DNA from: a virus
Strand: one strand, 5' to 3'
DNA: 64,000 nt
IMG/VR virus record: IMGVR_UViG_3300022839_000011
Coordinates: 1 to 64,000 of that record
The notes under the pieces are model-generated. The model was not told the origin of the DNA. It ran no database searches and saw nothing but the letters and a program-made list of their open reading frames with translations. Shown one piece after another: positions 18,055 to 42,624 of the stretch; within the stretch, counting starts at the first letter, position 1; each line of letters begins with the position of its first letter. Made by a program: the position numbers and the translations under genes.

Positions 18055-19134
18055 TTATAGTACGCAAGATTCACAATAATCATCATCGCCGTCTGTGACT
18101 TCATTTACAGATAGCGGCTCATCTAATTTTACTTCACCAGACATATCATATGTGTTGCAATAGTATAGTGTCTTAATTCCCATTTTGCAAGCATAAATGA
18201 TGTCACCAAGTATGACCATAAGTGGAATTTCATTGCTTGGATAAAATTCGGGATTGTAAGATGTGTTCGTAGAAATAGATTGATCCACAAACTTTTGTAT
18301 CGTGGCCATAATATTTAGATAACCAGTAGGTGATTTTTGATCCCACAAAAGATCATATTTATTTTTCAGCCGTTGAATCTCTGGAACAACTTGCTTCATA
18401 GAACCATCCTTTGAATTCTTGACAGAAATAAGTCCACGGGGCGGCTCAACACCATTAGTAGCATTAACCAACTGACTCGAAGTTTCAACAGGCATCAAGC
18501 TCAGTATTGTAGCATTTCTCATGCCTTTGCTAGTAATTTCGCGTAATGCATTCCAGTCAAGCAACAAATCGTTTTCTACAATACTATCAACAGCTTTGCG
18601 ATATGTATCAATGGGCAATTTACCTTTGGCCCATTTAGTAGTGGAAAAAGCATCAAAAGAACCTCTTTCTTGTGCAAGTTCAGCCGACGCTTTAATAGTA
18701 TAATACCCCATTGCCTCCATATATGGATGTAAGAATTTTGGTGTGTCTTCGCCTGTATATTTGTAATTGTTTTTGGCTAAAAAGTATGCCAAATTCGATA
18801 TTCCAATACCAATGTTACGATACTTCAATGTTGATGAAAGTGCGGATGGTAGAAGATAAGTCTGATATGTCAAAACATTATCTAAAAACCTTACAACTAC
18901 TTTTGAAAGTTTTTCAAAATCATCAGGCGTTTTAATATTGCCCATATTATATGCAGCAAGTGTGCACAATGATATTAGTCCGTCAACATCACTAATACTT
19001 TGCATTGGCTTTGTGGTCTGTACGACTTCGGCGCAATTATGCACTAAAACGCCATTAGCAAAAAAGTTATGATTTTCTGCTACTGTTATATCATATACTG
19101 GGGCTCTTTTATTTAATTTTATTACTTTTGCCAT
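18055..19134 (-). CDS. nrdA: NrdA C-terminal half fused to split C-intein (aa 1-33, 19036-19134)
   Basis: MAKVIKLNKRAPVYDITVAENHNFFANGVLVHN|CAEV..., then LCTL, MPVETSSQ, KTLYY and C-terminal CESC. Confidence 0.95.
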   Translation of the reverse strand: MAKVIKLNKRAPVYDITVAENHNFFANGVLVHNCAEVVQTTKPMQSISDVDGLISLCTLAAYNMGNIKTPDDFEKLSKVVVRFLDNVLTYQTYLLPSALSSTLKYRNIGIGISNLAYFLAKNNYKYTGEDTPKFLHPYMEAMGYYTIKASAELAQERGSFDAFSTTKWAKGKLPIDTYRKAVDSIVENDLLLDWNALREITSKGMRNATILSLMPVETSSQLVNATNGVEPPRGLISVKNSKDGSMKQVVPEIQRLKNKYDLLWDQKSPTGYLNIMATIQKFVDQSISTNTSYNPEFYPSNEIPLMVILGDIIYACKMGIKTLYYCNTYDMSGEVKLDEPLSVNEVTDGDDDYCESCVL

Positions 19135-20098
19135 ATAATGTTCTTCCTTTTTTCCATCCTATTAGATTATATTCATTCAAATCAATAAAAGAGATTGATT
19201 TGCTATTAACGCCGTCAGTAACCCAACAACGTTTTCCGCTTATTATTTTCACACGACCAGATCTTCTGGTATAGTATGGGTCATATTTTAGACCTGTTTT
19301 TTCTTCCACTATTTGTATCATACCACGAAAGCCATCTCCATCAAACCTAAAATCTTTTATTGACTTAGGAAAATATATATTATTTTCAACCCCAAAATCT
19401 GTTGCTGTTTTATGACCTGGTATATATCCTAATTTATTGCATATTTCGATAAAGTTTAAAATGAGTTGGTCATCATCATAACCAGAATAGTTATTATTTT
19501 TATCCCCACTACCATTTACCATAGATAATTTTCTTTCATCTGTGTATTTTACACCTTTACTATGGTGGACCCACTGACCCGATATCACTTTAGGGTGTTG
19601 GCAACTTACTGAACCTATAATTTTTAAAGTATCAACATCTTTCACTGGCATATTGCCTTTCCTCGATTCGGATATTTTTTTAGCTCCATTTGGCGTATGC
19701 CACCCAACTTTTTTTCTGAATTCAGATGAATTACTTTTTATGAACGCATATCCGCCTAATATATACTTAGTAAGGTGCATGTTAGACCCATCAACATTAA
19801 ATCTAGCATTGCTTTTCATACCATTAAGAACAAACCTAACAGAAAGCATATCACCTCTTTGACCGTAAGCCTTGTATCTTAGCTTATGTATGAAGACGTG
19901 TTCTTCGGGTAATAGAGTAACAAGATTATGTGGCGAATCGCACCCACCATCATGTTTAGGAATTATATGATGAATCTCCACATATAAATTCTCTTTATCA
20001 AGCCTTTTGTCTATATTATTTTTTGCCATTAACCTTTCTTTAGGGGCGGTATTTATAAAATAATTTATAAATTTGTCATGTAGTTTACGATAGTTCAT
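19109..20098 (-). CDS. free-standing HNH homing endonuclease (MobE-like) between nrdA halves
   Basis: EIHHIIPKHDGG.D..NLV.L.PEEH..IH; basic C-terminal DNA-binding region. Confidence 0.9.
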   Translation of the reverse strand: MNYRKLHDKFINYFINTAPKERLMAKNNIDKRLDKENLYVEIHHIIPKHDGGCDSPHNLVTLLPEEHVFIHKLRYKAYGQRGDMLSVRFVLNGMKSNARFNVDGSNMHLTKYILGGYAFIKSNSSEFRKKVGWHTPNGAKKISESRKGNMPVKDVDTLKIIGSVSCQHPKVISGQWVHHSKGVKYTDERKLSMVNGSGDKNNNYSGYDDDQLILNFIEICNKLGYIPGHKTATDFGVENNIYFPKSIKDFRFDGDGFRGMIQIVEEKTGLKYDPYYTRRSGRVKIISGKRCWVTDGVNSKSISFIDLNEYNLIGWKKGRTLYGKSNKIK

Positions 20099-20103
20099 GT
20101 AGC

Positions 20104-20143
20104 ACCTCTTTGCATTTAACTAATTTTATTTATGCAAAGAGGT
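20104..20143 (-). promoter_or_regulatory. SD-sequestering hairpin containing late-promoter variant CATAAATA
   Basis: 12-bp perfect stem ACCTCTTTGCAT/ATGCAAAGAGGT covering the AGAGGT SD of the HNH gene. Confidence 0.8.
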
Positions 20144-20154
20144 ATTTCATTGTA

Positions 20155-21774
20155 CTATAATGTTTTTATTCTATCTTCTTCAGTCAAATCTATTGCTGCC
20201 ACATATCCTCTATTATCAGTCCAGAATAAATGATCGCTCGTACACACTACACTATGTGTATCATCATCGGTAGTTACTTGATATAAATCTGCGTCGGGGT
20301 TTGTGAGACCAAACGCTTCAATAGGCATATATTCAACAGCCTTCGTATCCGTATTGTAAGACTTGACCACCACGTTATCATACTTGCGCATAAAATTACC
20401 CAAGTCTTCTATATTAATTTTAAATGGTTGATTATCACAAATCACATCAATTTTGGTATCACCGACTAAACACAAATTACTCATATATACTGGATTTTCT
20501 TCGCCTAACATACCTTGCTCGTTTGTGTTGTCAACAAATTGAATATAGATGCGACCTGTCTCAACTCTTTCTTGCGCAAGGACACTGAACGCCTCAATAG
20601 CAGTTATTGTTTTTTTACGAATACTACTGTCATTTTCATATTTGACATAAAGTTCTCCAAACAATTCTTGATTTGTGAAAAAAGCCTCATAAAGGTCTGG
20701 TACATCGTTGGGCGAAAACAGAGTAATGTTGCCATCTTCGATTAGCCTTTGAATCAAAAATCTGTTAAGTTGAACGCCATAATCTACTGATCTAACTCGC
20801 GTGTCTTCTGTACCTTTGTTATTTTTTAGTACAATCATATCTTCATATTCATAATGCCACATTGGATAATAAAATGTGCCGCTTGAATTGCGAACTCCAC
20901 CCTGATTGCAGCTTTTTAGCGCAGCATTGAAATATTTTATAAATGGCACTACACCAGTATGGGTAACTTCACCATTACGGATTGGAGAGCCAACCGCGCG
21001 AATTCTTCCGATATTCAAACCAATACCTGCTTTATTGGCTGCGTATTTTACAATAGCCGATGCGGCAGCATTGATCGAATCAAGTGAATCACCAGCATCA
21101 ATTAAAGTACAAGATGAAAATTGTTTTACATTAGTCCGCAATCCTGCCATGATAGGTGTTGGCAGTGTAAAATCAAACTTGGAAAGATGGTTATAAATTT
21201 TCTTGATAAATTTAAGTCTATCTTTACTTTCTTCAGAAATACAACCACTAGCAGCAATCAACATGTATGCAATTTGCGGTGTTTCGAAATACTCCATAGT
21301 CGATTTATTTTTTACGAGATACTTGGTCCTGAACTGCACCATACCAGCATATGAAATTTCATAGTCTCTATTGTGATTTATGACACCCTCCATAAACGCC
21401 CAATCTTCATCATTGTATACAGAAAGTAAGTCAGGGTTATAAAAACCTTTCTGAACGCCTCGCTTTACGATATCTTTGATATGCCAAGGCTCATAATGCC
21501 CATATGCTCGCTTACGAAGATCAAAGTTAATCAACTTTGATGCAACAAATTGATAGTTAGGGGTTTCTTCTGAAATTAATTCGGATGCTGAACGGATAAG
21601 AGTTTCATGAATTTCTTCACTCGTAATACCTGCATAAAATTGAATTTGTGATTTCAGTTCAACTTCCGAAATAGACACCCCTGTAATCTTGTCACAAGCC
21701 CATTCAACAACAGTATGTATTTTGTTCAAATCTAACTGCTCTTTGCGTCCATCTCGTTTAATAATTATAGTCAT
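20155..21774 (-). CDS. nrdA: NrdA N-terminal half fused to split N-intein (105 aa, 20158-20472)
   Basis: ATP-cone IIKRDG, PTPIMAG.R...QFSSC, ...YMSNL|CLVGDTKI...VVCTSDHLFWT. Confidence 0.95.
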   Translation of the reverse strand: MTIIIKRDGRKEQLDLNKIHTVVEWACDKITGVSISEVELKSQIQFYAGITSEEIHETLIRSASELISEETPNYQFVASKLINFDLRKRAYGHYEPWHIKDIVKRGVQKGFYNPDLLSVYNDEDWAFMEGVINHNRDYEISYAGMVQFRTKYLVKNKSTMEYFETPQIAYMLIAASGCISEESKDRLKFIKKIYNHLSKFDFTLPTPIMAGLRTNVKQFSSCTLIDAGDSLDSINAAASAIVKYAANKAGIGLNIGRIRAVGSPIRNGEVTHTGVVPFIKYFNAALKSCNQGGVRNSSGTFYYPMWHYEYEDMIVLKNNKGTEDTRVRSVDYGVQLNRFLIQRLIEDGNITLFSPNDVPDLYEAFFTNQELFGELYVKYENDSSIRKKTITAIEAFSVLAQERVETGRIYIQFVDNTNEQGMLGEENPVYMSNLCLVGDTKIDVICDNQPFKINIEDLGNFMRKYDNVVVKSYNTDTKAVEYMPIEAFGLTNPDADLYQVTTDDDTHSVVCTSDHLFWTDNRGYVAAIDLTEEDRIKTL

Positions 21775-21842
21775 CAGTACCTCTTAGTGTTAAAATTGTT
21801 TGATAGCAAATATATATTTACTATATGTTGTGCTGGGATGTG

Positions 21843-21850
21843 TATTTATA
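21843..21850 (-). promoter_or_regulatory. T4-type late promoter TATAAATA
   Basis: Exact consensus upstream of nrdA. Confidence 0.55.
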
Positions 21851-21875
21851 CATGTCAAAATACCAAGTTTAGTGT

Positions 21876-22766
21876 TTATACTGCCATTGGTGCTTTTATT
21901 GTGGGATGATGTACATAATTTTTAAGAGTAAATAGAGGGCAATCTTCGAGTTTAAAGCCATTGCGTAGTCTATCCATAAGGTCAAACTCTACACCAATTT
22001 CAAGTGTAGGTAAAGCATATTCTTCTCTTAGCAGTTGTTCTTTTACCTGATCAAAGTGATCATTATATATGTGCGCATCACCGATAGAATGTACAAAATT
22101 TCCTACTTCCAAACCACATTCACGAGCAATAATATGTGTCAAGAGAGCATAACTTGCGATATTAAACGGGATTCCTAAAAATAAATCGCCAGATCTTTGT
22201 GTCATCATGCAACTTAGTTTGCCATTTACCACACGAAATTGCGCGGTGTAGTGACAAGGCGGCAATGACATTTCAGGAATTAACAAAGGATTCCAAGCAG
22301 ATAATATGATTCTCCTTGAATCTGGTGTTTCTTTTATTTGTTCGATAATTTGCAGTATTTGGTCAACACCACATTCTGATCCTCTGAAATAGTCAAAATT
22401 TCGCCAAATTTCCCCATAAATTGGCCCCAGCTCTTTTTTAGAATCGTTATTTTCATATCCTAACGCAACACCTTGATTATCTGCGTTGGCAGTCCAAATT
22501 GTATTTCTTCCAACTAAATCTTTTCTGGGCTTACCATAAGTTAGTTCGGCAAGCCTACGTTCATCTGTGCTTCCTTCAAGCATCCAAAGCAATTCACCAA
22601 CAACAGATTTCCATGCAAGTTTTTTTGTTGTTACCGCTGGAAACCCATCTACAAGATTAAAATGCATTTGACGACCGAATAAGGTACGGGTTCCTGTCCC
22701 TGTTCTGTCACTTACATTTTCACCGTTTTCTAAAATATCTTTTAGTAGCATATGATATTGTTTCAA
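21876..22766 (-). CDS. td: thymidylate synthase ThyA
   Basis: DRTGTGT, ELLW, LPPCH, QRSGDLFLGIPFNIASY, GDAHIY. Confidence 0.97.
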   Translation of the reverse strand: MKQYHMLLKDILENGENVSDRTGTGTRTLFGRQMHFNLVDGFPAVTTKKLAWKSVVGELLWMLEGSTDERRLAELTYGKPRKDLVGRNTIWTANADNQGVALGYENNDSKKELGPIYGEIWRNFDYFRGSECGVDQILQIIEQIKETPDSRRIILSAWNPLLIPEMSLPPCHYTAQFRVVNGKLSCMMTQRSGDLFLGIPFNIASYALLTHIIARECGLEVGNFVHSIGDAHIYNDHFDQVKEQLLREEYALPTLEIGVEFDLMDRLRNGFKLEDCPLFTLKNYVHHPTIKAPMAV

Positions 22767-23251
22767 TTCTTACTCCAAATACTAAATTCTAACCCATCTT
22801 GTTTGTTTACTGCCGTCTTATCATAACCATTAAGATACATATTCATATCTACAAATGCATCACAATCATAATCACCATCAATCTTAGTCACAAAAATGTT
22901 GTCGCATAGATGAAGGGTTTGCCTATAAATATCAGCGCCGCCAATGATCCAGATTTTAAGGTTTGGATACTCCATTTTTAAATTTTCGATGAGTTCCTTC
23001 ATGTCACCAAACCAAGTATATTTAGGGGAGCCTATAATTTCTGATCTTGTGACTACGATATTCATTCTTTTTGGTAGATTTTTACTACCGATACTTTCCC
23101 ATGTTTTTCTACCCATAATTACAATATGGCCATTAGTACATTCTCTAAACCATTTCATATCAGCTGAGGAATGTGGCCATGGTAGAACACCATCTTTTCC
23201 TATACCATATTTATTATCATGCGCTAAAATAGCATTTACTGTCATATTCAT
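22763..23251 (-). CDS. frd: dihydrofolate reductase
   Basis: GIGKDG.LPW, DM.WF, IMGRKTWES, IIGGADIY. Confidence 0.95.
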   Translation of the reverse strand: MNMTVNAILAHDNKYGIGKDGVLPWPHSSADMKWFRECTNGHIVIMGRKTWESIGSKNLPKRMNIVVTRSEIIGSPKYTWFGDMKELIENLKMEYPNLKIWIIGGADIYRQTLHLCDNIFVTKIDGDYDCDAFVDMNMYLNGYDKTAVNKQDGLEFSIWSKN

Positions 23252-23946
23252 TCTCCAAAAAAATTGTGTGATTGGTGTACATGCATTTCCATTACTCTAT
23301 TTGTTGCTATATCATAATATTTTTTGTTTTGTTCTATACAAATCCATTTGCGATTATTCTTTTCAGCAGCAACAGCAGTTGTGCCAGAACCAGCAAATGG
23401 GTCTAGAACGATGTCACCTACAACAGAAGAGTTAGTTATTAACTTTTGTATAAAAGATAATGGTTTTTCAGTTGGGTGCATCTTATCAATACCTTTTAGC
23501 ATTTTTACATGTTGATAATCTCTACTAGTCATATCATGTATTGCTTTTGCTTTACCTTTTTTAAAAAATAAGACTGGTTCAGTGTATTTTAAATACCATC
23601 TGTTTGGCATATTTGTATCTTTTATCATGTTTATAATGTTATGAAAATGAAATCCAACTTCATCAGCTATGTTTAAATAGTTACGCAAGTCATTTCGATT
23701 TGTGAATGTGTAAAAATGAGTAGAATCTTTCATGACTCTGAATACTTCTTCGAACCAAATTCTTGTATCTGGTAAACTGTCACCTATTATAAACCCGTTT
23801 GGCATATAATTTGGTCTTGATGAGTTTCCTGTTTTTGTCATCTTGTATGGTGGGTCGGTTATGACCATATCAATAGAACCATCAGGAATATCTTTCATCA
23901 ATTCAAGACAATCGCCAAGCCAAAATTCACCATTCTTAATTTTCAT
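23248..23946 (-). CDS. DNA N6-adenine/N4-cytosine methyltransferase (beta class)
   Basis: TDPPY ... HPTEKP ... LDPFAGSGTT. Confidence 0.93.
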   Translation of the reverse strand: MKIKNGEFWLGDCLELMKDIPDGSIDMVITDPPYKMTKTGNSSRPNYMPNGFIIGDSLPDTRIWFEEVFRVMKDSTHFYTFTNRNDLRNYLNIADEVGFHFHNIINMIKDTNMPNRWYLKYTEPVLFFKKGKAKAIHDMTSRDYQHVKMLKGIDKMHPTEKPLSFIQKLITNSSVVGDIVLDPFAGSGTTAVAAEKNNRKWICIEQNKKYYDIATNRVMEMHVHQSHNFFGE

Positions 23947-24638
23947 ATTTCCCCCATATTAAAAAAATCTATCAATCCACTTGTGCCATTTATTCTTTTC
24001 TGTGCAGTTGCAAAATATGTTTCATCTAACTCTATTCCTACAAATGGCAAGTTCAATTTCTTTGCTGCTACACCTGTACTACCTGAACCCATGAATGGAT
24101 CTAAAACAATGCCATTAGAACCATCACCAATCCCATGAATAATTTCTTCCATGAGGCTAACTGGTTTGCAAGTCGGATGCCCATTATCTTCGGATGGGCT
24201 TGGTCTACGATGTGAAAAAACAGACTTCAATCGTTTGTTGTCAAAGATTCTTCGTCCTTTTGATGCATACCAGATAATATCATGCATAGGTGCAAAAGCC
24301 CCTGTCAAATCGCCCATGCCATGATGCATACGATTCCAAACACCTTGTGAACGCAAATTGAATCCGTTTTTTTCAATAGACTCCCGCCAAATGTGACTTG
24401 TATTCCAGTCACAAAATGTGACGAAACCACCACCATCTTTTAATACGCGAAAAGCTTCTGAAATCCATTCTGTGTTTACCTTATCATCACCATTAATGGC
24501 CTTATGTCTTGGACCTTCTTTTGCTGCATTAGACACAAAATTCATACCATATGGCGGGTCTGTAACTACCATATCAACAGACCCACTTTCAATTTTTTTG
24601 ATCTCTAGTAGACAATCGCCGTTTATTAGTTTCAACAC
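23943..24638 (-). CDS. DNA N6-adenine/N4-cytosine methyltransferase (beta class)
   Basis: TDPPY ... HPTCKP ... LDPFMGSGST. Confidence 0.93.
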   Translation of the reverse strand: MLKLINGDCLLEIKKIESGSVDMVVTDPPYGMNFVSNAAKEGPRHKAINGDDKVNTEWISEAFRVLKDGGGFVTFCDWNTSHIWRESIEKNGFNLRSQGVWNRMHHGMGDLTGAFAPMHDIIWYASKGRRIFDNKRLKSVFSHRRPSPSEDNGHPTCKPVSLMEEIIHGIGDGSNGIVLDPFMGSGSTGVAAKKLNLPFVGIELDETYFATAQKRINGTSGLIDFFNMGEI

Positions 24639-24651
24639 ATTTACCCCGTTG

Positions 24652-25677
24652 TTAACAGTTTTTAAGATCGATCAGCTTTATCTTAGCTTCCAAACCACTA
24701 TACACGTTTTTCTTGATCATGTCCACAATATAAGATGATGATAATCCACTTGATACAAAATCATTTATGTCTTTTCCATACTTTGTCATCCCTTTAGGGA
24801 ACAAGCATACTTTCATGCCTTTGTCAATTATTTTTTCAACACGTTTCATAATTTCTTTGTTTCTGTATTCCAAATCAAAAACGAAAACCGCATTTTCAAC
24901 ATTATCTAGCCCTGAAAGATTTCCATCAGCACCCGCCATTGCAATAGAATTTGGAACAAACAAACTATCTATCGCACCTTCGAGTACATAATATTGTTTT
25001 TTCGAATCGACTTTATCCAGACCAAATATTTTTGGCTTTTCATCCATCATGATAGTGAGGTATCGTAATCCATTAGGGTCAAATCCCCTACCCGTAAAGC
25101 CAAACATTTTTCCTTTACTATCTAGAAAGGGGATGACAATTCTAGGCTCATCTCTTGTAAATATTAATTTTTCTGGTATAATAGAATTTACCCAAGTCTT
25201 AAACTTGGGCGCATAAAATATCCTGTAATGCTGGTCGGTTGGAATTTTTCTTGATTCGATATACAGTTTTGCTGGGTGATCAAATTTCAACTGACTGACT
25301 TTTTTGATCTTAGATAGATGGTTAATACTTAATTTTGGCGGTTCTTTGGTTGGTTCTATTTTTGCTGTTGGGGGTACATCTACCCTTGATACATTATTGA
25401 CATATTTATCTGTAATGTATGAATTATATGCCATAGGGTCAAACCCGCGCAAGAATGAAACGAAAGAATGACTCTCGCCGCAGTTATGACAAAAATACCT
25501 AAACGACTGATATTTGTCTTCAAGAAACCAAGCTCTTGCTTTTGATTTGGAGGTTTGTGAATCACCACAATATATGCATCTAAAGTTAATACGATAAGGG
25601 GATTTATTTTTGATAGAAAAACGCTCAAGTTTATTAGACAGCATCATAACGTGCTGTAGATCAATATAGTCAACCAT
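24652..25677 (-). CDS. 61: DNA primase (T4 gp61-like)
   Basis: RCIYCGDS...CHNC Zn ribbon; RIVIPF; LEGAIDS; FD.EYRN; KDIND. Confidence 0.93.
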   Translation of the reverse strand: MVDYIDLQHVMMLSNKLERFSIKNKSPYRINFRCIYCGDSQTSKSKARAWFLEDKYQSFRYFCHNCGESHSFVSFLRGFDPMAYNSYITDKYVNNVSRVDVPPTAKIEPTKEPPKLSINHLSKIKKVSQLKFDHPAKLYIESRKIPTDQHYRIFYAPKFKTWVNSIIPEKLIFTRDEPRIVIPFLDSKGKMFGFTGRGFDPNGLRYLTIMMDEKPKIFGLDKVDSKKQYYVLEGAIDSLFVPNSIAMAGADGNLSGLDNVENAVFVFDLEYRNKEIMKRVEKIIDKGMKVCLFPKGMTKYGKDINDFVSSGLSSSYIVDMIKKNVYSGLEAKIKLIDLKNC

Positions 25678-25754
25678 GTTTATTTTATCTCTTACTTACT
25701 TACTATCTCATTCAATATAACATTGATTATATACATAGTGCAAGTACTTGTCAA

Positions 25755-26231
25755 CTAGAAAAATGATGAAAAAGGAAATTTTGACAAGATAAAAATTATG
25801 ACTGCACCTATACCAAGTATGTACCATCTCCAGTTTTCCAGAGAATTTATACGTTTATCTTGATGGTCTAGCTTGTCACTTAGTTTTTGGTTTGACTTAT
25901 TGATGGCATCAAGAACCTCTTTATGCCTTCTATCTCTTTCATGGTCAGATACATTTTTCATATCTTCCAACTTTTGATTTAATTCTTTACGAAAATCTAA
26001 TTCGTCTTGGGTATTCTTCATAGACTTTTCTTCGAGACTCGCAATTCTTTTTTCGTTATTTTGCAGAATGTTTTCCTGAACAGCTATATTTTTTATTACG
26101 TTAGTCATTTGTATGACAGCATCATCAATTTTTTGGAACACCCGTTCAATCTGCTTAACATCTTTTTTTATTAGGGCTATGTCTGTTTTGATAGAATTTG
26201 TTTCATTATCATTCATCTGATTGCCCGTCAT
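25755..26231 (-). CDS. coiled-coil protein with C-terminal TM helix (XhlA-like), lysis region
   Basis: RINSLENWRWYILGIGAVIIF. Confidence 0.65.
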   Translation of the reverse strand: MTGNQMNDNETNSIKTDIALIKKDVKQIERVFQKIDDAVIQMTNVIKNIAVQENILQNNEKRIASLEEKSMKNTQDELDFRKELNQKLEDMKNVSDHERDRRHKEVLDAINKSNQKLSDKLDHQDKRINSLENWRWYILGIGAVIIFILSKFPFSSFF

Positions 26232-26496
26232 AATCTGCCTTTATCCTTTGTATCTTTTCTTGGCCTCTTGTGAAAGCACTAATTCCCAAAACCGCGCCCA
26301 TAGCAGCATGAAAGACACCACCAGCTATTAATGTTAGAGGAGTCCATTGTAATGCAACACTACCAGAACCCCAAACTTGAATTAAACTCCAAAGTATAGG
26401 AGCTACGACAAAATCAAATAGAATAATAATCATATATACAACTGCCATCATTGGCCTCCAATGCGTCCGCAGCCAATTTTTTTTACCATCTTCCAT
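26209..26496 (-). CDS. putative holin
   Basis: HWRPMMA.VY...FDF, two TM helices, GAVLGISAFTRGQEKI; late promoter 26502-26509. Confidence 0.7.
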   Translation of the reverse strand: MEDGKKNWLRTHWRPMMAVVYMIIILFDFVVAPILWSLIQVWGSGSVALQWTPLTLIAGGVFHAAMGAVLGISAFTRGQEKIQRIKADYDGQSDE

Positions 26497-26520
26497 AAGA
26501 TTATTTATACCTTTTGTAAT

Positions 26521-26856
26521 CTACTTTTTGTAAATTGCTATTACTTTTTGCTGTTGCCTAATCATAGCCATAATATCAGATAAATTGAATGCAATATTTT
26601 CGTACCCTTCAGATGTCAATGCAAAAAGAACTTTTTCGCCATTCATATCATCAAACAAATGATTTATGTTTTCAGGCGTGACGATAATCCATTTGACACT
26701 TTTAAGGCCAAGCTGGTCTACTTTAGGAACAATAGGTTTAGGTTTACTGACTTCAACTGTTCGTATCTCAATTGGTGTTACTGCAATATCTTTCGGGCCA
26801 ACTGAACAAGCACTAAGGAGTATTATTACCAGACCAAAACCAAGGACATTCGACAT
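26521..26856 (-). CDS. putative o-spanin (lipoprotein)
   Basis: Signal with LSAC lipobox, Pro-rich, overlapping the 3' end of the i-spanin. Confidence 0.7.
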   Translation of the reverse strand: MSNVLGFGLVIILLSACSVGPKDIAVTPIEIRTVEVSKPKPIVPKVDQLGLKSVKWIIVTPENINHLFDDMNGEKVLFALTSEGYENIAFNLSDIMAMIRQQQKVIAIYKK

Positions 26857-27292
26857 TAAATTCTTTCTCGTTTTTAGCATTTTTTTCCTTATCATTTAAT
26901 GGCACACCGGATAATAATTCGAAACACCTAAGCACATTTGCCGAAGCATTATTGACTGTTCTTTGGACTAATACTGGTTTTGCCGCAGCTAATGCATCTA
27001 ATTCATGGCGACCAAGACGTTCACGCAACTCATTATTTTCAATTCGTATAACTTGAAAATCGTTCTGGACAGCATAAAAATTACTAGTAACTTCTTCAAA
27101 ATTTTGTTCCATTTTATCAATTGTATTGATATTTTCAGTATTGGCCCTTAATAATTGGCCATTGTTCACAACCAACGTGGCATTGGCTTGTGTTAACGCT
27201 TCAATGCGCGTTTGAGTGGTGTTGTAATAATAGTATACAGCTCCACTCAATAACGCTATCAATATACCTATGAAAATCCAAGATTTCATCAA
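26813..27292 (-). CDS. putative i-spanin
   Basis: N-terminal TM then coiled coil; C-terminal Cys residues. Confidence 0.7.
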   Translation of the reverse strand: MMKSWIFIGILIALLSGAVYYYYNTTQTRIEALTQANATLVVNNGQLLRANTENINTIDKMEQNFEEVTSNFYAVQNDFQVIRIENNELRERLGRHELDALAAAKPVLVQRTVNNASANVLRCFELLSGVPLNDKEKNAKNEKEFNVECPWFWSGNNTP

Positions 27293-27299
27293 TTAGCCT

Positions 27300-27641: not shown

Positions 27642-27642
27642 A

Positions 27643-28506: not shown

Positions 28507-28524
28507 GCCTATTTCCTTTAGAAT

Positions 28525-29207: not shown

Positions 29208-29210
29208 TAA

Positions 29211-32431: not shown

Positions 32432-32432
32432 T

Positions 32433-33131: not shown

Positions 33132-33156
33132 TTTATCGTCCTTTTGTGGGTAAGAA

Positions 33157-35241: not shown

Positions 35242-35311
35242 TTCGATTTCCTCTGAATAAGATAATATGTGTATTTATGATAGCGCAAATTGCACTTTAA
35301 TCTATTTATAC

Positions 35312-35337
35312 AAAAAGGGGGCGCGATGCCCCCTTTT
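35312..35337. terminator. bidirectional intrinsic terminator
   Basis: AAAAAGGGGGC-gcgat-GCCCCCTTTT. Confidence 0.7.
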
Positions 35338-35824
35338 CAGTTCTCGATTTGATTTTTATATTTTGGCAAGAAACCTATTATACTTCTGTATCGGTGCATC
35401 ACCTTTCGACAAAAGACGCTGCCTTCTTTCTAATTCTTCAAGGTTTTCTGATGATGCCAAATAATTATACTCATCGTCATGGGATTTGAAAATAAAGTCA
35501 CGAAGCCATTTGATTGTGTTTTTCATTATATAATACCAGTAAATGGAATTCTACCATTTGTAATTTCATAGTAAGCAAACAGATAGTCTTTTTTATACTC
35601 TGTTTTTGCCCATCTCATTATATTAATGTCAATGGATACACTATTGTATCCAAAAATATTTCTTAAAAACCTCATGTCATTTCCTATCTTATTGATGTAC
35701 TTATTTATATCTACATTACACTAAAAAGAGAGTAAATTGTAATTTATTATAGCATATCTAACATGCATTTTTTGCATACCTAATATAAAAGGCGACCAGT
35801 TGGTTATACTGGTCGCCTCTTTTC

Positions 35825-37447
35825 TCACAACTGCAAATTGGTGCATTTTCCATTTATGACATTAATAAGCTGTCTCTGCCCATTTTCTGCCACCAAGCAA
35901 GAGGTGTGAGTCCAAGATGAAGGCCCTCTATTATAGCCTAAATCTAGTTTGGAAACAGTACCAACTCTAAACACTCCCCTTTGTATTGCGCCTGTGTGGT
36001 TATGTCCTACCACACAATCACCATACACCTGTTCTAAGCCATTAAGTGATGGTTTAGCACCATTCAACCCCAAATCGCCATGAGAACCACATTCTATATT
36101 TGCTACCTTTGAAGAGTCATCCCTTGATAAGAAAACCCAACTATTAGGTATCTTATTATTAGTCAACTTGAACCCGCGCTTCAACACGTCTTCATCTTCA
36201 AAAAGTGCAGTTGCAATCTTCAATGATAGGTAGTGGTTTTTGGGGTCTTCAACATATCTACCGCTTGATATGTATCTTGTGAGAAATTCATCGTGGTTAG
36301 ATTTTACGATATATATCTTGCTTGGTTTTAAAGCAATATCAATGCTTTTAATTAAATCGAAGGTTTGTTCGAGCTCATCATGCAAATCTTCTTCGCCGCT
36401 CAATGCCCTTTGGCTTCTTTCTACTATAGATTTGACATGATGGCTAATACTGTACCCATCAAATACATCATGTAGATAAATGCTTTTTACTTTCATTTTT
36501 GAAAAGGTGTTGATGAATGCATCAAGTGCGTCTTTATCCACACTTGTTCCATGAAGATCCCCAAATACAATATTAATTGGTATGTCTTTGACCTGACCAT
36601 TTGGCATATACATCTTACCAAGATCAACAAAAGCACCGCTTTCATCACATTGTATTTGTCTAAAATGAAATAACTTATCATCTTCAATTTCTACAATTAT
36701 AGCACCCATCTTGTGGTCGAAATCTGCAATATATGACAATCTCTTTGACATAAAAAAATCAGAATAGTATTGAGGTAAAGTACAAGCACCTGTTGTCATT
36801 ATTGAATAGTTTTTACCTCTACTGTTCCCAGCAGGAATATATTCTAAGAATTGTTTAGGACTTGCAAAAATATTAGACCCTTCACGGTTTCCGAGTCGTG
36901 ATAACCCAGTAATTGGTTTAATTTGTTTTGCCGAAACTTGAATACTACATAGCGAAATGTTTTCGTTTAATGGCGTGTCTGCTTGAACAAACAAATATGA
37001 GGGATCACTGAATACTGGATCAAAAACTGCAGTTTTGTTTTCGAAACTATTGGTTATGCTTTCACAAGGCATGATTGCAGCCTGCGCATCATTTCTTTTG
37101 CAAAATGTCTTAATAGCATCAAGAAACCCGTGATGGGCCTTACAGTTTCCTACCGCAGTAGTTACAATAAACACTTTTTTGTTGCTGTTAATCAAGTTTT
37201 TATTAGATGCAAATATGTCATCAACTGAAAAGAAATGCTCTGAAAGAAATTCTTCGTGATTGTCTTTTACAAATTGATGAAGGGTTTCTATTCCACCAAA
37301 TCTTCCTCTTAGTATATCTCTGGTTATGCCATGCACAAGAAAATCTTTATATACAGGCAACCCTTTCTTTTCTGCTATGATAGTTTTGTAGAGGTCTACT
37401 ATTTGTTGGTTTTTATCCTCGTCTTGCTTGTTGATATCTTCATCCAT
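35825..37447 (-). CDS. large metallophosphoesterase-fold protein
   Basis: FGDLH, LHDVFDG, SNHD, SHGD, GHNH. Confidence 0.8.
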   Translation of the reverse strand: MDEDINKQDEDKNQQIVDLYKTIIAEKKGLPVYKDFLVHGITRDILRGRFGGIETLHQFVKDNHEEFLSEHFFSVDDIFASNKNLINSNKKVFIVTTAVGNCKAHHGFLDAIKTFCKRNDAQAAIMPCESITNSFENKTAVFDPVFSDPSYLFVQADTPLNENISLCSIQVSAKQIKPITGLSRLGNREGSNIFASPKQFLEYIPAGNSRGKNYSIMTTGACTLPQYYSDFFMSKRLSYIADFDHKMGAIIVEIEDDKLFHFRQIQCDESGAFVDLGKMYMPNGQVKDIPINIVFGDLHGTSVDKDALDAFINTFSKMKVKSIYLHDVFDGYSISHHVKSIVERSQRALSGEEDLHDELEQTFDLIKSIDIALKPSKIYIVKSNHDEFLTRYISSGRYVEDPKNHYLSLKIATALFEDEDVLKRGFKLTNNKIPNSWVFLSRDDSSKVANIECGSHGDLGLNGAKPSLNGLEQVYGDCVVGHNHTGAIQRGVFRVGTVSKLDLGYNRGPSSWTHTSCLVAENGQRQLINVINGKCTNLQL

Positions 37448-37462
37448 GCGTTATATTTCCCA

Positions 37463-37999
37463 TCACTCTATATTTTGTATTTCTGAAAGAACAACCATTC
37501 TTTCAATCGATTCCATGGCATATGTTCGGATAATAACCTTGTCACTGATACCACCTTGTGATTCTTCTGACGATTTAGGAGGCTCCAACCCTTCAATATC
37601 ATCTTTTTCAATTGGTTCGCCATCTAAGAAATATGTCGAAGCACCAGATTCTTTAAAAAAGCACTCTATGTAAAAGTTGCCTTTGTGTTCTACAAAAGGC
37701 GTGTCTTCGATTCTACTTCCCCATGGGCGTGGTTTGAGAACAAATTCTTCAGGGTCTTTGCCTTCTTTTTCCATGCGGGATTTTACCATACTTTCATAAG
37801 CATTCTTTACATTTGAGCACAAAACAACTTTAGAACCAGCGACCAACTTAGTTACTTTGCCTTGCATTGGATTCTTTTTTCCACCTTTTAGCTGGACTTT
37901 TGTTATGGTATCTATGTCAACCAGATAAGATCCTTTAAGAGCCTCAATTTTTGACCTAACGACATCAAAAGTTTCTTCCCTGCCTTCTATAATAATCAT
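37463..37999 (-). CDS. hypothetical phage protein
   Basis: GGKKNPMQGKVTK...YE.MV..R..KEG...F....RPWG. Confidence 0.65.
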   Translation of the reverse strand: MIIIEGREETFDVVRSKIEALKGSYLVDIDTITKVQLKGGKKNPMQGKVTKLVAGSKVVLCSNVKNAYESMVKSRMEKEGKDPEEFVLKPRPWGSRIEDTPFVEHKGNFYIECFFKESGASTYFLDGEPIEKDDIEGLEPPKSSEESQGGISDKVIIRTYAMESIERMVVLSEIQNIE

Positions 38000-38189
38000 G
38001 TTTTAATCCTTTTAAAATTCAAATCCGCAAAAAAATGTGGCGTGAAACCACGGAATCCAGCACCTGTGTTAAGATTTTTGCAAATGTTTTCTGCACTTGT
38101 TTCATTTGCACTTAATTTAATAGTCGTCTGCGTCACCTTTTCTACAATATCAAAATGCTGCTTTTCGTTGCGTATAACAGTATAGCTCA

Positions 38190-38762
38190 TTAAAAATCTC
38201 CTACATCAAATAATTTGTTTTTCTTAATCTTATGTATGTTATTATAGTTATTGTCTTGACTTATATTTTCAGTATGACTATTATTCTCATTCATTACTGT
38301 TTTTTGGACACTTGCATCTAAATTGCGCAGTTTCATTCTTGGCTTATCAAGACCTATCACAAATCTACGATTTACATTGATATCACCCCATCTATTTTTT
38401 AGCTGCTTGATCATGAGTTGCCCCATATTTTCAAGATCTTCCGATGTTATTAAGGCAAATATGGCATCCGCTGTATGTGTTATGCCCATACTATTTTTTG
38501 TTAATATGTCGTTGCAATAGAATAGCTGGTTTCCGGTTACAGATATATCAACAGTTTCTAATTCACCAACTTCTGAAATCTCTACGATCTCATCATCATA
38601 GTCTATTTTGCAGTCTTCTATTTGCTGCTTTTCTATCTTTTCAATTTCTATGGATATCAATAGATCTGTTAGCTGAAACACATCCATATCTTTTACCATT
38701 CCGTTGATTATCATATGCTCTGCTTTTAGATAACATACGGATTCCAATTTTTCATTCATCAT
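38190..38762 (-). CDS. 41: gp41 helicase C-terminal part fused to an extended split C-intein (90 aa, 38493-38762)
   Basis: DEIVEISEVGELETVDISVTGNQLFYCNDILTKN|SMGITHTAD...KQLKNR. Confidence 0.9.
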   Translation of the reverse strand: MMNEKLESVCYLKAEHMIINGMVKDMDVFQLTDLLISIEIEKIEKQQIEDCKIDYDDEIVEISEVGELETVDISVTGNQLFYCNDILTKNSMGITHTADAIFALITSEDLENMGQLMIKQLKNRWGDINVNRRFVIGLDKPRMKLRNLDASVQKTVMNENNSHTENISQDNNYNNIHKIKKNKLFDVGDF

Positions 38763-38772
38763 ATACTACCTT

Positions 38773-40155
38773 TCACTTGCTATTCAAGAAAGAGCCCACA
38801 TCCAAACCTTCGTTGTAAGAAAGTCTCGATACACGACCGTCTATTGATTTAGATGGGAAAACATGGTCTTTACTAACAATTATGGTTTTTCCTTTTTTTG
38901 TCTTTATGGATATACAATCTTTTAACTTGGGATGATGTACCATTGTTACTATTTTAGTACCATCTTCAGTCTGTACCCTATCGTTGGGCATTAGGTGTTG
39001 TATTTCGATTACATCCCCATTCGATTTGGTTACTTTTTCATGTTTGTATATACATTCTGAAGTATTTGTCAAATCTACGTCCGAATTTCCAAACCCAGAC
39101 CTGTTTAATTGTGAACTTGATACAATAGGGACATTATACTCTACCGCCAAGCCTCTAACTTCTTCTGCTATTGACTTCACTAAAGTATATGAATTCGCAG
39201 CCGCAGCCCCTCGAATTCTGGATGATGCACATATATTTATGTAGTCTAAAAATATGATGTCAGGTTTGAAGTTTTTCTTTTGTCGCAATTCATTCAATAG
39301 ATTTCTGAAATGCCCAACATGCGCAGAACTTGTAGGATACTCTTTGATAACCAATTTCCCAGGTGTATTCTCTTTGAATTTGTTTATTTTTTTGGTATAT
39401 GCAGTAAAAGGTAGATCCATTATTTCATCAAGTGTTATGTCTAAAATATTGGCATCAATTCTTCTACCTACTTCTTCCTCACTCAATTCTGCCGTAATAT
39501 ACAGAACATTTTTGCCAAAAAGTAAATGTGCCGCCGCCATATGGCACTTTACAATACTTTTGCCTGTACCAGTCGCACCTAAGAATAATGTAAGTGACTT
39601 CTTTGGCAATCCACCCTTAGTGATGGTATTGAACATATCAAGATCAAAGGGAATGCGTTCTTCTTTTCTATGATAGTATTCAAACCGCGATTCAAAATCT
39701 TCAAGGAAATCGTGCCCGATATGACTATCGAAACTAATTGACAGTGACTTTGAAAGAAGATCGGGGATTGCGCCTTTGTCTAACTCTTGGTCTTTGCCAT
39801 CTAGAATTAGGATAGATTTTCTAATTGAATTGAAAAGGTCTTTATCTTGGCAGAATTTTTCTGTCTCGTCTACCAACCAATCAATATTGGTTTCAGGGTC
39901 AACTTTCAGTTCTGATAACTTGTCAATAACTTCTTTAAATAGATTTTCGTTTAGGTCTTTTCTACCTTCCAAAGAAACCGCCAAGGCTTCTTTGGAAGGT
40001 GTTACTTTGTATTTTTCTACTAAAATAGAAAATGTGTCCAGTATTTTTTTCGAAGATATGTCGTCAAAATAATCTTCTTTGATGTATGGAAAAACCTTTT
40101 GGAAGTATTCAACATTGTATAGTAAGTTGGCAAGTATAGTGTTTTCCAATGACAT
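38773..40155 (-). CDS. 41: gp41 replicative helicase N-terminal part fused to split N-intein (93 aa, 38776-39054)
   Basis: GATGTGKS Walker A, FLDYINI, SQLNR.G...DLTNTSE|CIYKHEKV...VSKDHVFP. Confidence 0.93.
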   Translation of the reverse strand: MSLENTILANLLYNVEYFQKVFPYIKEDYFDDISSKKILDTFSILVEKYKVTPSKEALAVSLEGRKDLNENLFKEVIDKLSELKVDPETNIDWLVDETEKFCQDKDLFNSIRKSILILDGKDQELDKGAIPDLLSKSLSISFDSHIGHDFLEDFESRFEYYHRKEERIPFDLDMFNTITKGGLPKKSLTLFLGATGTGKSIVKCHMAAAHLLFGKNVLYITAELSEEEVGRRIDANILDITLDEIMDLPFTAYTKKINKFKENTPGKLVIKEYPTSSAHVGHFRNLLNELRQKKNFKPDIIFLDYINICASSRIRGAAAANSYTLVKSIAEEVRGLAVEYNVPIVSSSQLNRSGFGNSDVDLTNTSECIYKHEKVTKSNGDVIEIQHLMPNDRVQTEDGTKIVTMVHHPKLKDCISIKTKKGKTIIVSKDHVFPSKSIDGRVSRLSYNEGLDVGSFLNSK

Positions 40156-40160
40156 TCTTA

Positions 40161-40706
40161 TTATTCCTCTTCTTCATCCACCTCCACATCATCATTGGGT
40201 ATGACTCCGTTTTGATTCATTTTAAACTTGCTTTCAATAAATTTCTTAAATACTGGGTCCGATATCAACTTTTTGAAAAATTTGTCATCTGTTTCAATGT
40301 CTTTGGCGCGTCTTTTGCTTTCATTGATCTCGCCTGTTTCCATATCTACAGTGCTATACCACCCTTGGTTTATCTTTACGATGCTACCATATTCTATAGC
40401 CAAATCGAAAAGTGATGACCATTTTTGGATGCCTGTCTCATACAATACTGTAAATGGCAGTTTGGCTTTTTCTCTCACAAATCTTGATTTTTCAATATTG
40501 ATTGTGAATTTGTATCCAGCGATTTCTGTACCTTCTTTTTCTTGCGCTTTGCCAATCACAAAAATTTGATTTGATGAGTAAGTTACCGCTGTATTATGTG
40601 TTACTACCCCATTTTCCAACACATAATGATGAACATCTTTCACTGTTATATCATATACTTCTTTTTTTCCTACACTCTTAATAGATTTAATTTTCAAGTC
40701 TTTCAT
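40161..40706 (-). CDS. uvsX: UvsX C-terminal part fused to split C-intein (38 aa, 40593-40706)
   Basis: MKDLKIKSIKSVGKKEVYDITVKDVHHYVLENGVVTHN|TAVTYSSNQIF...KSRFVREK; alternative start 40733. Confidence 0.92.
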   Translation of the reverse strand: MKDLKIKSIKSVGKKEVYDITVKDVHHYVLENGVVTHNTAVTYSSNQIFVIGKAQEKEGTEIAGYKFTINIEKSRFVREKAKLPFTVLYETGIQKWSSLFDLAIEYGSIVKINQGWYSTVDMETGEINESKRRAKDIETDDKFFKKLISDPVFKKFIESKFKMNQNGVIPNDDVEVDEEEE

Positions 40707-41655
40707 CCTTTTTATACCGATTTTTACGACCATAATAGAAACCTTTTGGCAAAGGCTCTTCTGCTTTCAATTTAATATTTGAATCGCCATTGGTAGCCCA
40801 ACGGGACTTATTTGGTTTACCTTCATGAGCAAGTTTATACGGATTTTGCCATATTGTCAAATCATAGTCACACATTTCTTCTTTTTTTATTCGAATAGCA
40901 ACGCCAGTGTTTTTATTTTTTAACATTATCATATCTTTCCTCGATCTCTTTTTATTAGATTCGGGGCTTTTTGGAACTCCTCTGAAATTCTTTATGGCAA
41001 CTTCAGAATTTATTTTTTTAACTTCGGCATATCGTTCTGGATTTTCATCGTAAAAGTTTTTTCTTGTAACCAACATTTTACATTTAGAATCTTGGGTGTG
41101 CATTTTACCGTAGAATGAAGAATCTTCGCCATATCTCTTGTTTGAATCAATACGGCCCTTACTCCAACCATCAGGCGGTTCATCCAAAAATTGTTTCTCT
41201 ACATTGCCGTCGTTATAGGTTTTATATCCATAATTTGCATTTACGTACTCCCCGTTTATGACCAGAGGATGATCTTTTTTTAATTTGACGAAATCGCCCG
41301 TTCTGGCATTTCGATATGTGCCATATTCTGGGTTTGAATAATTTGATATGGTGGCCACTGCTTTATTGAAATATTTCGTATCAGATACAACATCCAAAAA
41401 AATGTGTAGATTTTTTTCGAAATCTAATGCATTGTCATAATCTTCAAAATAACCAAGAATTATGGTTTCTACATCACCTTCAATACATAATTGTTTATAT
41501 CCTTTCCATCTGGATGAACCGAAATATTTTTTCCCAGAATTTGTTATTATATTAGTACCGTCAAAAAAGCAGTTTGCTTTAGAGCCGATATAATAATACG
41601 GCTCTAAATTTTTTTCTTTTCTATCTTTTATAATTGTCATGTAAACTACGTTCAT
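40687..41655 (-). CDS. free-standing GIY-YIG (Seg-like) homing endonuclease between uvsX halves
   Basis: VVY...YYIGSK...YFGSS...A..FE; NUMOD3-like FYGKMHT.DSK; TATAAATA at 41683-41690. Confidence 0.88.
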   Translation of the reverse strand: MNVVYMTIIKDRKEKNLEPYYYIGSKANCFFDGTNIITNSGKKYFGSSRWKGYKQLCIEGDVETIILGYFEDYDNALDFEKNLHIFLDVVSDTKYFNKAVATISNYSNPEYGTYRNARTGDFVKLKKDHPLVINGEYVNANYGYKTYNDGNVEKQFLDEPPDGWSKGRIDSNKRYGEDSSFYGKMHTQDSKCKMLVTRKNFYDENPERYAEVKKINSEVAIKNFRGVPKSPESNKKRSRKDMIMLKNKNTGVAIRIKKEEMCDYDLTIWQNPYKLAHEGKPNKSRWATNGDSNIKLKAEEPLPKGFYYGRKNRYKKDERLEN

Positions 41656-41703
41656 TTAATAATCCTATACGTCGCATAAGTTTATTTATAAGAACGGACT
41701 TTT

Positions 41704-42624
41704 CTATACGTCTAATGAAACGATATCATGGGAATCAGTGAGTTCACTCGCCTTGACCCAACCCTTTGTTGTCAAAAACGGGTGGTTGTGTGAACATACT
41801 ACAGAATGATCATCTTCAAATATAATTTCAAAACACTCTGGGGTTCCATTTTCTAATGTGTTTGGGTTCCAAGATTCTATAACTTCCTTGGGGCCTTCCA
41901 ATGTCAAAACCTCATCACCTGCTGAAATGTCTTGAACTTTTCTAAGAGAACCATCATGCATTACAATATTGGTATTTTTGGCCAAGCAACCTCCTGGGAT
42001 GATAGTTTTTGCATACATTGGGCCAATTTCAGTATATACATGATTTATCAGTATACATGGCAAATCTTTCATAGTCAAGTGTGGAGTTATGATTCTTAGC
42101 AAAGAACGAATAGCTTTTGCTCTTGACATATCTGCTACTGACTTTTCATTTTCCGCATCATCTACTTCTTTTTTAGAAGCAAGGTTTCCCAAAGAATCCA
42201 CCATGATGAAAACTTTATCACCACGTTTAATTTCTTCGAGCCGTTTCACAATATCAAATTTCAATTGCTCTACATGCTCAACTGGTATATGTATAACCCT
42301 ACCAGCATCAATGCCATTTGTCGCCAAATAATCTGGTGTGACGCCAAATTCCGAATCGTAAAGAAGTGCGACTGCATCAGGATATTTGTTAAAATATGCC
42401 TTCATACAATATAGTGCCAGCAATGTTTTGAAGCTTTTGCTTAGGCCAGCGAACACTGTAAGCCCAGGTATAAGGCCCCCATCTAACGAACCACTAAATG
42501 CGATGTTCAAAATTGGTAGGTCGGTAGGAATAACATCTTTGGTATTGAAAAATGTAGACTCGCTAAGTATGGCAGAAGTTTTGATTGCCCCTGATTTCTG
42601 CATTCGTTCTAGTAATGAACTCAT
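41704..42624 (-). CDS. uvsX: UvsX (RecA-like) N-terminal part fused to split N-intein (94 aa, 41707-41988)
   Basis: AGLSKSFKT, YDSEFG, DSLGNLASKKE, NHVY...PGG|CLAKNTNIV...CSHNHPF. Confidence 0.93.
   Translation of the reverse strand: MSSLLERMQKSGAIKTSAILSESTFFNTKDVIPTDLPILNIAFSGSLDGGLIPGLTVFAGLSKSFKTLLALYCMKAYFNKYPDAVALLYDSEFGVTPDYLATNGIDAGRVIHIPVEHVEQLKFDIVKRLEEIKRGDKVFIMVDSLGNLASKKEVDDAENEKSVADMSRAKAIRSLLRIITPHLTMKDLPCILINHVYTEIGPMYAKTIIPGGCLAKNTNIVMHDGSLRKVQDISAGDEVLTLEGPKEVIESWNPNTLENGTPECFEIIFEDDHSVVCSHNHPFLTTKGWVKASELTDSHDIVSLDV

Follow-up and report, generated by a model that had tools for sequence, protein, structure and literature searches.

Sequence analysis of a 64,000-nucleotide stretch of viral DNA (positions 1 to 64,000 of the IMG/VR virus record IMGVR_UViG_3300022839_000011, referred to below as the window) confirmed that nrdA, uvsX and gene 41 are each interrupted by a predicted naturally split class 1 intein with intact splicing residues. 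We read the three inteins as independent, dispensable mobile cassettes of the fractured gene type that have reached different stages of the homing cycle, and put the probability of this reading at roughly 85%. The arrangement is an accumulation of selfish cassettes of a known type, not one coordinated system.

The window is part of a record of 88.7 kb that is estimated to be about 42% complete. Its G+C content is about 35%, and the minus strand holds nearly all genes. With Pfam a T4-like replication module was recognized, comprising nrdB, nrdA, thymidylate synthase, the gene 41 helicase, uvsX and gp32. The phage is an uncultured marine T4-like myovirus; the best protein identity of the module to a cultured phage is about 55%, and megablast searches with both regions under study returned no match among cultured phages.

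Anatomy of the three fractured genes

In all three loci the intein halves reside on separate genes, set apart by stop codons and equipped with starts of their own. The upstream open reading frame (ORF) encodes the N-terminal part of the host protein (N-extein) followed by the N-terminal intein half (IntN), the downstream ORF the C-terminal intein half (IntC) followed by the C-extein. The nrdA gene, encoding the large subunit of ribonucleotide reductase (RNR), is organized as follows (lengths in amino acids, aa):

20155-21774 (-): nrdA-N ORF, 539-aa product
20473..21774 (-): nrdA N-extein, 434 aa, ending ...YMSNL (Pfam ATP-cone, Ribonuc_red_lgN and Ribonuc_red_lgC positions 1-212)
20158..20472 (-): nrdA IntN, 105 aa, starting CLVGD, with Cys1 and block B TSDH, charge -11 (phmmer)
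20103..20144 (-): perfect 13-bp hairpin 5' of the HNH gene (RNA fold)
19109..20098 (-): free-standing HNH homing endonuclease gene, 329 aa (Pfam HNH, 7.8e-5; PHROG 655 homing endonuclease, 8.4e-17)
18055-19134 (-): nrdA-C ORF, IntC and C-extein
19036..19134 (-): nrdA IntC, 33 aa, ending VHN, charge +2 (Pfam Intein_splicing positions 125-155, E 1.1e-6)
18058..19035 (-): nrdA C-extein, 326 aa, beginning CAEV (Pfam Ribonuc_red_lgC positions 212-522)

The N-extein contains the ATP-cone, the all-alpha domain and the first half of the barrel. The +1 residue of the intein is the Cys of the NLCxE motif, that is the thiyl-radical Cys, and insertion at this same site has been described for NrdA split inteins (PMC2677866). 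An intein-less nrdA allele that is 81% identical (locus L089) fixes the predicted junction exactly. The IntN matches the NrdJ-1 intein (8ubs) with a phmmer E value of 3.7e-13. The hairpin preceding the HNH gene has a folding energy of -21.4 kcal/mol (z -5.6) and was equalled in none of 200 shuffled sequences; its 3' arm contains the GAGG Shine-Dalgarno sequence of the HNH gene and its loop the near-late-promoter sequence CATAAATA. The 3' end of the HNH gene overlaps the start of nrdA-C by 26 nt. For the genes from nrdA-N to nrdB, a terminator-like hairpin comes only after them, at 16941-16914. A late-promoter motif, TATAAATA, is also located at 21843-21850 (-), 69 nt 5' of nrdA-N.

The uvsX locus shows the same order of elements:

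41704-42624 (-): uvsX-N ORF, N-extein and IntN
41989..42624 (-): uvsX N-extein, 212 aa, RecA-like core, ending IIPGG (Pfam RecA)
41707..41988 (-): uvsX IntN, 94 aa, starting CLAKN, with Cys1 and block B SHNH, charge -11 (weak Hint-family Pfam matches)
41683..41690 (-): T4-type late-promoter motif TATAAATA, 28 nt 5' of the ATG of the uvsX endonuclease gene
40687..41655 (-): free-standing homing endonuclease gene, 322 aa, with a GIY-YIG-like N-terminus (YYYIGS...YFGSS; PHROG 7504 homing endonuclease, 1.4e-15)
40161-40733 (-): uvsX-C ORF, IntC and C-extein
40593..40733 (-): uvsX IntC, 47 aa as called, ending THN, charge +5 (Pfam Intein_splicing positions 122-155, E 2.3e-5)
40164..40592 (-): uvsX C-extein, 143 aa, Thr+1, beginning TAVTY (Pfam T4_UVSX_C)

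A profile built from seven homologues of the uvsX IntN matches the gp41-1 intein with 1.6e-10 and also recovers a bacterial intein-like (BIL) domain, PI-SceI, DnaE inteins and the RecA intein PI-MtuI. In an alignment of five IntN sequences Cys1 and the S..H of block B are invariant, and conservation of the IntC among relatives begins near residues 8-15 of the half as called. In Salmonella phage CF-SP2 the ORF that separates the uvsX halves is 31% identical to this endonuclease (E 4e-22); Pfam and PDB searches with the endonuclease of the window gave no match. Its gene overlaps uvsX-C by 47 nt at the 3' end, and the hairpin near the gene is weak (z -1.3). Since the window contains 20 copies of TATAAATA versus 9.5 expected, 17 of the 20 on the coding strand, the single copy in front of the endonuclease gene is only suggestive of a late promoter.

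Directly downstream lies the fractured helicase gene:

38773-40155 (-): gp41-N ORF, N-extein and IntN
39055..40155 (-): gp41 N-extein, 367 aa, DnaB-like helicase, ending NTSE (Pfam DnaB_C)
38776..39054 (-): gp41 IntN, 93 aa, starting CIYKH, with Cys1 and block B SKDH, charge +5 (homologue profile)
38190-38762 (-): gp41-C ORF, IntC and C-extein
38493..38762 (-): gp41 IntC, 90 aa, ending TKN, charge -14 (N-terminal extension of about 50 aa and core of about 40 aa)
38193..38492 (-): gp41 C-extein, 100 aa, Ser+1, beginning SMGIT (PHROG 19 DnaB-like helicase, profile positions 522-604)

The two gp41 halves are separated by a 10-bp gap with a change of frame, and an endonuclease gene is absent between them. 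The junction is fixed exactly by an unsplit allele (L015), and dozens of other loci are likewise unsplit at this position. As a single sequence the gp41 IntN matches gp41-1 with an E value of 0.028 only; a profile of seven homologues, in which C1, S61 and H64 are invariant, matches the gp41-1 intein (6qaz) over its full length with 1.8e-20. The core of the IntC resembles the gp41-1-type IntC of locus L016.

Two features set this intein apart. The penultimate residue is Lys and not His (ILTKN|S; 38493-38498 (-)), whereas the gp41-1-type class in L016, inserted 12 residues upstream, reads ILTHN|S. A penultimate His in block G is common among inteins, though it is not known to be universal. The Lys is a trait of the class and not a sign of decay, as judged from its conservation in the window and in five diverged relatives (L007, L008, L010, L012 and L014). 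The same five relatives also conserve the acidic extension of about 50 aa at the start of the IntC (38613-38762 (-); ...DMDxFxLTDLLISxExEK...), which is absent from the gp41-1-type IntC of L016. The extension is probably helical; Pfam and PDB searches with it were empty, and a search of the ESM Atlas yielded sub-threshold leads only.

Across the three pairs, Cys is the first intein residue directly after the N-extein, block B follows the pattern (T/S)xxH, and a terminal Asn is succeeded by a nucleophile at +1 (HN|C, HN|T and KN|S); the penultimate His is present in the nrdA and uvsX inteins. A preliminary description of this DNA had proposed split inteins in the RNR, recombinase and helicase genes with Cys, Thr and Ser as +1 residues. 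Anatomy, residues and intein-less alleles agree with this proposal, and the +1 residues of nrdA, uvsX and gp41 are those it named. Pfam intein matches of the individual ORFs stay below the gathering score because each ORF carries half a domain. When all six intein pieces (three IntN and three IntC) were used as phmmer queries against all ORFs of the 88.7 kb record, a fourth intein was not found. A Pfam Intein_splicing scan of the same record recovered two of the three IntC ends and missed that of gp41.

The split genes could be imitated by frameshifts or chimeric contigs, given that the window is a metagenome-assembled viral contig and that the gp41 halves lie only 10 bp apart in different frames. 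The same splits, however, recur in four IMG/VR records besides this one, all from the same phage species and covering three further metagenomes (L005, L006/L088, L011), and the gp41 split is found in these four records as well as in five diverged lineages. Each half has its own start codon, with a purine-rich Shine-Dalgarno-like stretch visible by eye for gp41-C, nrdA-C and uvsX-C, and a complete endonuclease gene occupies both the nrdA gap and the uvsX gap. Because the splits recur in other records of the species, we give an assembly artefact next to no credence and treat it as excluded.

It is also conceivable that at least one pair no longer splices and that its halves act as association domains, the enzyme being a non-covalent two-chain complex. 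Functional fragmented RNR has precedent (PMC3045599; Aeh1 in PMC2677866), and in gp41 the replacement of the penultimate His by Lys and the long IntC could be taken as signs of lost activity. All three pairs keep Cys1, the block B His, the terminal Asn and the +1 nucleophile, as do gp41 and uvsX homologues that are only 37-63% identical in their IntN; mere docking would not call for these residues. Intein halves left in place in nrdA would moreover sit directly on the thiyl-radical Cys. We consider loss of splicing very improbable. Since the catalytic residues are kept across such diverged homologues, the sequences argue for continued selection on splicing, and they support the view that full-length NrdA, UvsX and gp41, the products of three essential genes, would each require joining by the predicted split intein. 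In the proposed mechanism the IntN and IntC would associate after translation, electrostatic capture being followed by folding into a HINT domain, which would then ligate the exteins to give full-length NrdA, UvsX or gp41.

Presence and absence of the cassettes in relatives

The genome most informative for mobility is L006 (record G001), which is 97-98% identical to the window at the nucleotide level over 18.6 kb. Its split nrdA intein is 100% identical to that of the window, HNH gene included, and its gp41 is split as in the window, without an endonuclease gene and with an intein that is 97-99% identical. The uvsX gene of L006 is intact and shows the exact junction IIPGG|TAVTY, with exteins 100% (N) and 99% identical to those of the window. 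Since a 98%-identical genome lacks the cassette, the uvsX intein is, on this comparison, dispensable; it appears to have been gained or lost recently and to have caused no adaptation in the other two inteins.

The junction itself differs between the two versions, reading ACTGCCGTCACATATGCT in the L006 type and ACAGCGGTAACTTACTCA in the window type. Within the first 18 nt of the uvsX C-extein (window 40575-40592 (-) versus L006:9564-9581) seven positions differ, six of them silently and one changing Ser to Ala, against a background of 2% (binomial probability of at least 6 of 18, about 1e-6). The closest intact relatives look like the empty, L006-type version. Such differences are the expected mark of a homing endonuclease target, and these 18 nt probably belong to the recognition region. 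They could stem from co-conversion of donor sequence or from a recoding that protects the filled allele.

A second near-isogenic pair concerns gp41. L018 and L016 are 99.9% identical over 3.9 kb except for a cassette of 1191 nt (L016:11048-12238) consisting of a gp41 split intein plus endonuclease at the gp41-1-type site. In loci L007-L009 a gp41 of the window's class contains about 1.1 kb between its halves, which in L007 includes a 369-aa endonuclease ORF without a match in Pfam and PDB searches; the split gp41 of L014 likewise has about 1.1-1.2 kb between halves.

Further states of the uvsX cassette were found in other relatives. Between the uvsX halves of L010 (L010:5373-5697) only a truncated piece from the N-terminus of the GIY-YIG-like endonuclease is left (...YYYIGSK... 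followed by a stop), which by its sequence is a decaying stage of the same cassette. L014 carries a contiguous mini-intein of 134 aa at the GG|T site, where the intein of the window is split. The uvsX gene of this related marine phage (L014:7623-9933) contains two inteins; at the second site, HTYQTM|S, the intein is split, with small ORFs between the halves that are maybe endonuclease remnants.

For a wider comparison 80 related loci were kept, ranked by similarity to the query; because the query included the intein, this sample is biased and yields no frequencies. Seventy-five of them could be scored for both uvsX and gp41: neither gene is split in 64, gp41 only in 5, uvsX only in 1, and both genes in 5.

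Taken together, the three loci of the window would represent three stages of one cycle. In nrdA the split intein is accompanied by an HNH gene whose ribosome-binding site would be locked in a hairpin. The uvsX cassette, with a GIY-YIG-like gene behind a late-promoter motif, would be a recent gain or loss that is still polymorphic in the population. In gp41 the split intein would have been left stranded once the endonuclease gene was lost. The endonucleases would carry the cassettes into intein-less alleles at co-infection.

The same three genes are also affected in a distant phage. In the complete 194.6 kb genome G003, whose exteins are 53-67% identical to those of the window, a Pfam intein scan found halves at three places only: the RNR large subunit, accompanied by a homologous HNH gene, uvsX, accompanied by a homologous endonuclease, and gp41. 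The gp41 intein of G003 occupies the gp41-1-type site, 12 residues upstream, and has THN|S as its end. This recurrence of the trio fits a repeated targeting of the most conserved genes.

The preliminary description had envisaged a natural orthogonal set or a cross-splicing network that might act as a post-translational checkpoint on replication; developed further, the set would be selected, or the network tolerated, with splicing conditional on redox state, metal or single-stranded DNA. All three host genes are indeed part of the replication and recombination module, uvsX lies next to gp41 and is probably transcribed together with it, and Cys1 and Cys+1 of the nrdA intein at the radical site offer a possible redox handle; the trio in G003 can be counted on this side as well, although it equally fits endonucleases aimed at highly conserved sequence. 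The dispensability of the cassettes contradicts a network or checkpoint. An intein kept for regulation would not be freely dispensable among close relatives, and here near-isogenic genomes differ in the uvsX cassette (L006) and in the gp41 cassette (L016/L018), and both genes are unsplit in 64 of 75 related loci. Whether or not a uvsX intein lies beside it, the nrdA intein is 100% identical, so that no co-adaptation is visible, and the charge polarity is a lineage trait (PMC2677866). We judge an evolved set, network or checkpoint very improbable.

Distinctly improbable in our view is the related idea that the three inteins reside together beyond chance, with conditional splicing of at least one pair tuning the timing of replication or recombination (through a redox-sensitive Cys1/Cys+1 at the NrdA radical site, or through UvsX splicing stimulated by single-stranded DNA) or with low-level nrdA/uvsX cross-splicing being tolerated. 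This idea derives from the fracture of the trio in two distant lineages and from the persistence of the gp41 intein without an endonuclease.

Some observations weigh against independent, dispensable cassettes as the full account. With a record that is about 42% complete, more inteins may sit in the rest of the genome. The splicing chemistry of gp41 may be atypical, considering its penultimate Lys and the 50-aa extension of its IntC. The nrdA and uvsX inteins agree in charge polarity, and phmmer detects a relationship between them (about 1e-4); they may associate with each other at a low level. Finally, the HINT fold of the inteins is predicted from sequence and profile matches only; for the contiguous mini-intein at the uvsX site of L014, AlphaFold2 run on the single sequence gave a mean predicted local distance difference test score of 44, too low for the model to be used.

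Charge, divergence and partner choice

Net charges of IntN and IntC are -11/+2 for nrdA, -11/+5 for uvsX and +5/-14 for gp41. The inverted charge of the gp41 pair and the basic character of both the nrdA and the uvsX IntC, which had been pointed out beforehand, thus hold. The inversion was considered as a local device against mispairing and rejected, because it is a lineage trait already present in gp41-1 and gp41-8: in both of these the IntN is positive and the IntC negative, and NrdA-2, NrdJ-1 and IMPDH-1 show the reverse (PMC2677866).

The IntN sequences of different pairs are 18-34% identical (nrdA versus uvsX 34%, gp41 versus either 18-26%), the IntC sequences 27-45% (nrdA versus uvsX 45%, gp41 versus either 27-34%). 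At this divergence the three pairs are classed, by sequence, as different intein lineages. VYDITV and NG..HN are common to the nrdA and uvsX IntC, as the preliminary description had noticed, and match the last approximately 30 positions of Pfam Intein_splicing; we read them as the general intein blocks F and G. The motif was rejected as evidence of cross-compatibility since it aligns to the C-terminal end of a general intein model.

Mutual orthogonality of the three pairs is likely from their sequences; it would come by default and not through selection. The inteins gp41-1, gp41-8, NrdJ-1 and IMPDH-1, some of which share the same polarity, have been used one-pot as mutually orthogonal (Pinto et al. 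2020, PMC7090010); two of these, gp41-1 and NrdJ-1, are the nearest solved relatives of the gp41 and nrdA inteins of the window. The cross-reaction reported among natural split inteins concerns cyanobacterial DnaE alleles (Beyer et al., bioRxiv 10.1101/546465). Partner choice would be a by-product of deep divergence, together with the opposite polarity of the gp41 lineage. Discrimination between partners would not be an adaptation to co-residence, and none is visible because the nrdA intein is unchanged whether the uvsX intein is there or not.

As to expression, one same-strand block runs from uvsX-N through the endonuclease gene, uvsX-C and gp41-N to gp41-C, with gaps or overlaps below 50 bp, and from uvsX-N onward no terminator-like site was found before 38051. 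On account of this tight block at least two of the pairs, uvsX and gp41, are likely to be co-expressed, and the presence of all six halves together in an infected cell is a reasonable inference from the gene order. Scans for sigma-70 promoters stayed at chance level and were uninformative on timing.

The comparisons of the window with L006 for the uvsX cassette and of L016 with L018 for the gp41 cassette amount to natural experiments that mark the inteins as dispensable mobile elements, and near-isogenic pairs of this kind also point to the exact endonuclease target region. The result fits the view that T4-like phage replication genes have been colonised repeatedly and independently by intein/endonuclease cassettes. 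For engineering, three candidate split inteins from one cell become available, including a UvsX class with Thr+1 and a gp41 class whose IntC is long and acidic and has Lys as its penultimate residue; with large orthogonal libraries already in existence, they add only incrementally in practice.

Relation to known fractured genes

Literature searches found no paper on a split UvsX intein, nor on several split inteins in one phage genome. Among cultured phages, homologues of the uvsX IntN at the same site were found in 25 records, corresponding to about 17 distinct phages. The fractured uvsX genes of cultured Straboviridae (for example Salmonella phage CF-SP2, Shewanella phage Thanatos-1, Yersinia phage TG1 and Escherichia phage HY03) are annotated only as two recombination proteins. 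They share the GG|T site with the window, and their IntN is 42-47% identical. The order of uvsX-N, endonuclease and uvsX-C with gene 41 downstream is also the same, except that gene 40 lies between uvsX-C and gene 41. CF-SP2 has an endonuclease homologous to that of the window, whereas Thanatos-1 has an unrelated Seg-like endonuclease. These phages infect enterobacteria and relatives, not marine bacteria, and the records examined contain at most two fractured genes each. In CF-SP2 and SEA1 IntN-like sequence occurs at two places, of which one is in uvsX; by analogy with S16, the second fractured gene of both appears to be uvsW.

In Salmonella phage S16 (L094, NC_020416.1 104626-107352) the UvsW helicase is encoded in two ORFs, gp114 and gp115, which flank ORF gp114.1. 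Compared with the window's uvsX IntN, the end of gp114 shows 34% identity, and the record has no intein annotation. In the IntN search of cultured phages S16 gave no uvsX IntN match, its only match being that in uvsW.

Aeromonas phage Aeh1 resembles the window in having an HNH endonuclease gene, mobE, between the halves of nrdA. The split NrdA of Aeh1 lacks an intein, its two parts assembling non-covalently, whereas the break in the window is flanked by intein halves. For Aeh1 a hairpin and late-promoter arrangement has been reported to restrict translation of the endonuclease (as cited in PMC2677866).

The closest parallel is provided by the fractured genes of Dassa, London, Stoddard, Schueler-Furman and Pietrokovski (2009, PMC2677866), in which split inteins occur together with free-standing homing endonucleases. 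They include gp41-1 to gp41-9, NrdA-1 to NrdA-7, NrdJ, IMPDH and others, so that fractured gp41 and NrdA genes are already known. Those contigs are too short to show several fractured genes per genome, and UvsX appears in them only as an unsplit neighbouring ORF, in contrast to the split gene of the window. The window shares with these loci the one-strand order of host N-terminal part plus IntN, endonuclease gene, and IntC plus host C-terminal part, and in nrdA the insertion directly before the thiyl-radical Cys. In nrdA and uvsX the 3' end of the endonuclease gene overlaps the IntC ORF as in these loci, and a hairpin or late-promoter element 5' of the endonuclease gene in addition to the overlap is common to the window, the loci of that study and mobE of Aeh1 (PMC2677866). 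The polarity agrees as well, with a positive IntN and negative IntC in gp41 and the reverse in NrdA. The nrdA endonuclease of the window is of the HNH type, as opposed to the GIY-YIG and Vsr-like enzymes of the intein loci in that work. Among solved inteins, gp41-1 (6qaz) and NrdJ-1 (8ubs) come closest to the gp41 and nrdA inteins of the window; the inteins of the window are diverged. The gp41 intein differs from gp41-1 in its penultimate Lys and its 50-aa IntC extension, and its insertion at NTSE|S is 12 residues further downstream than the gp41-1-type site as seen in L016. With its missing endonuclease gene the gp41 locus of the window resembles gp41-7, an endonuclease-less locus that is placed at a later stage in PMC2677866.

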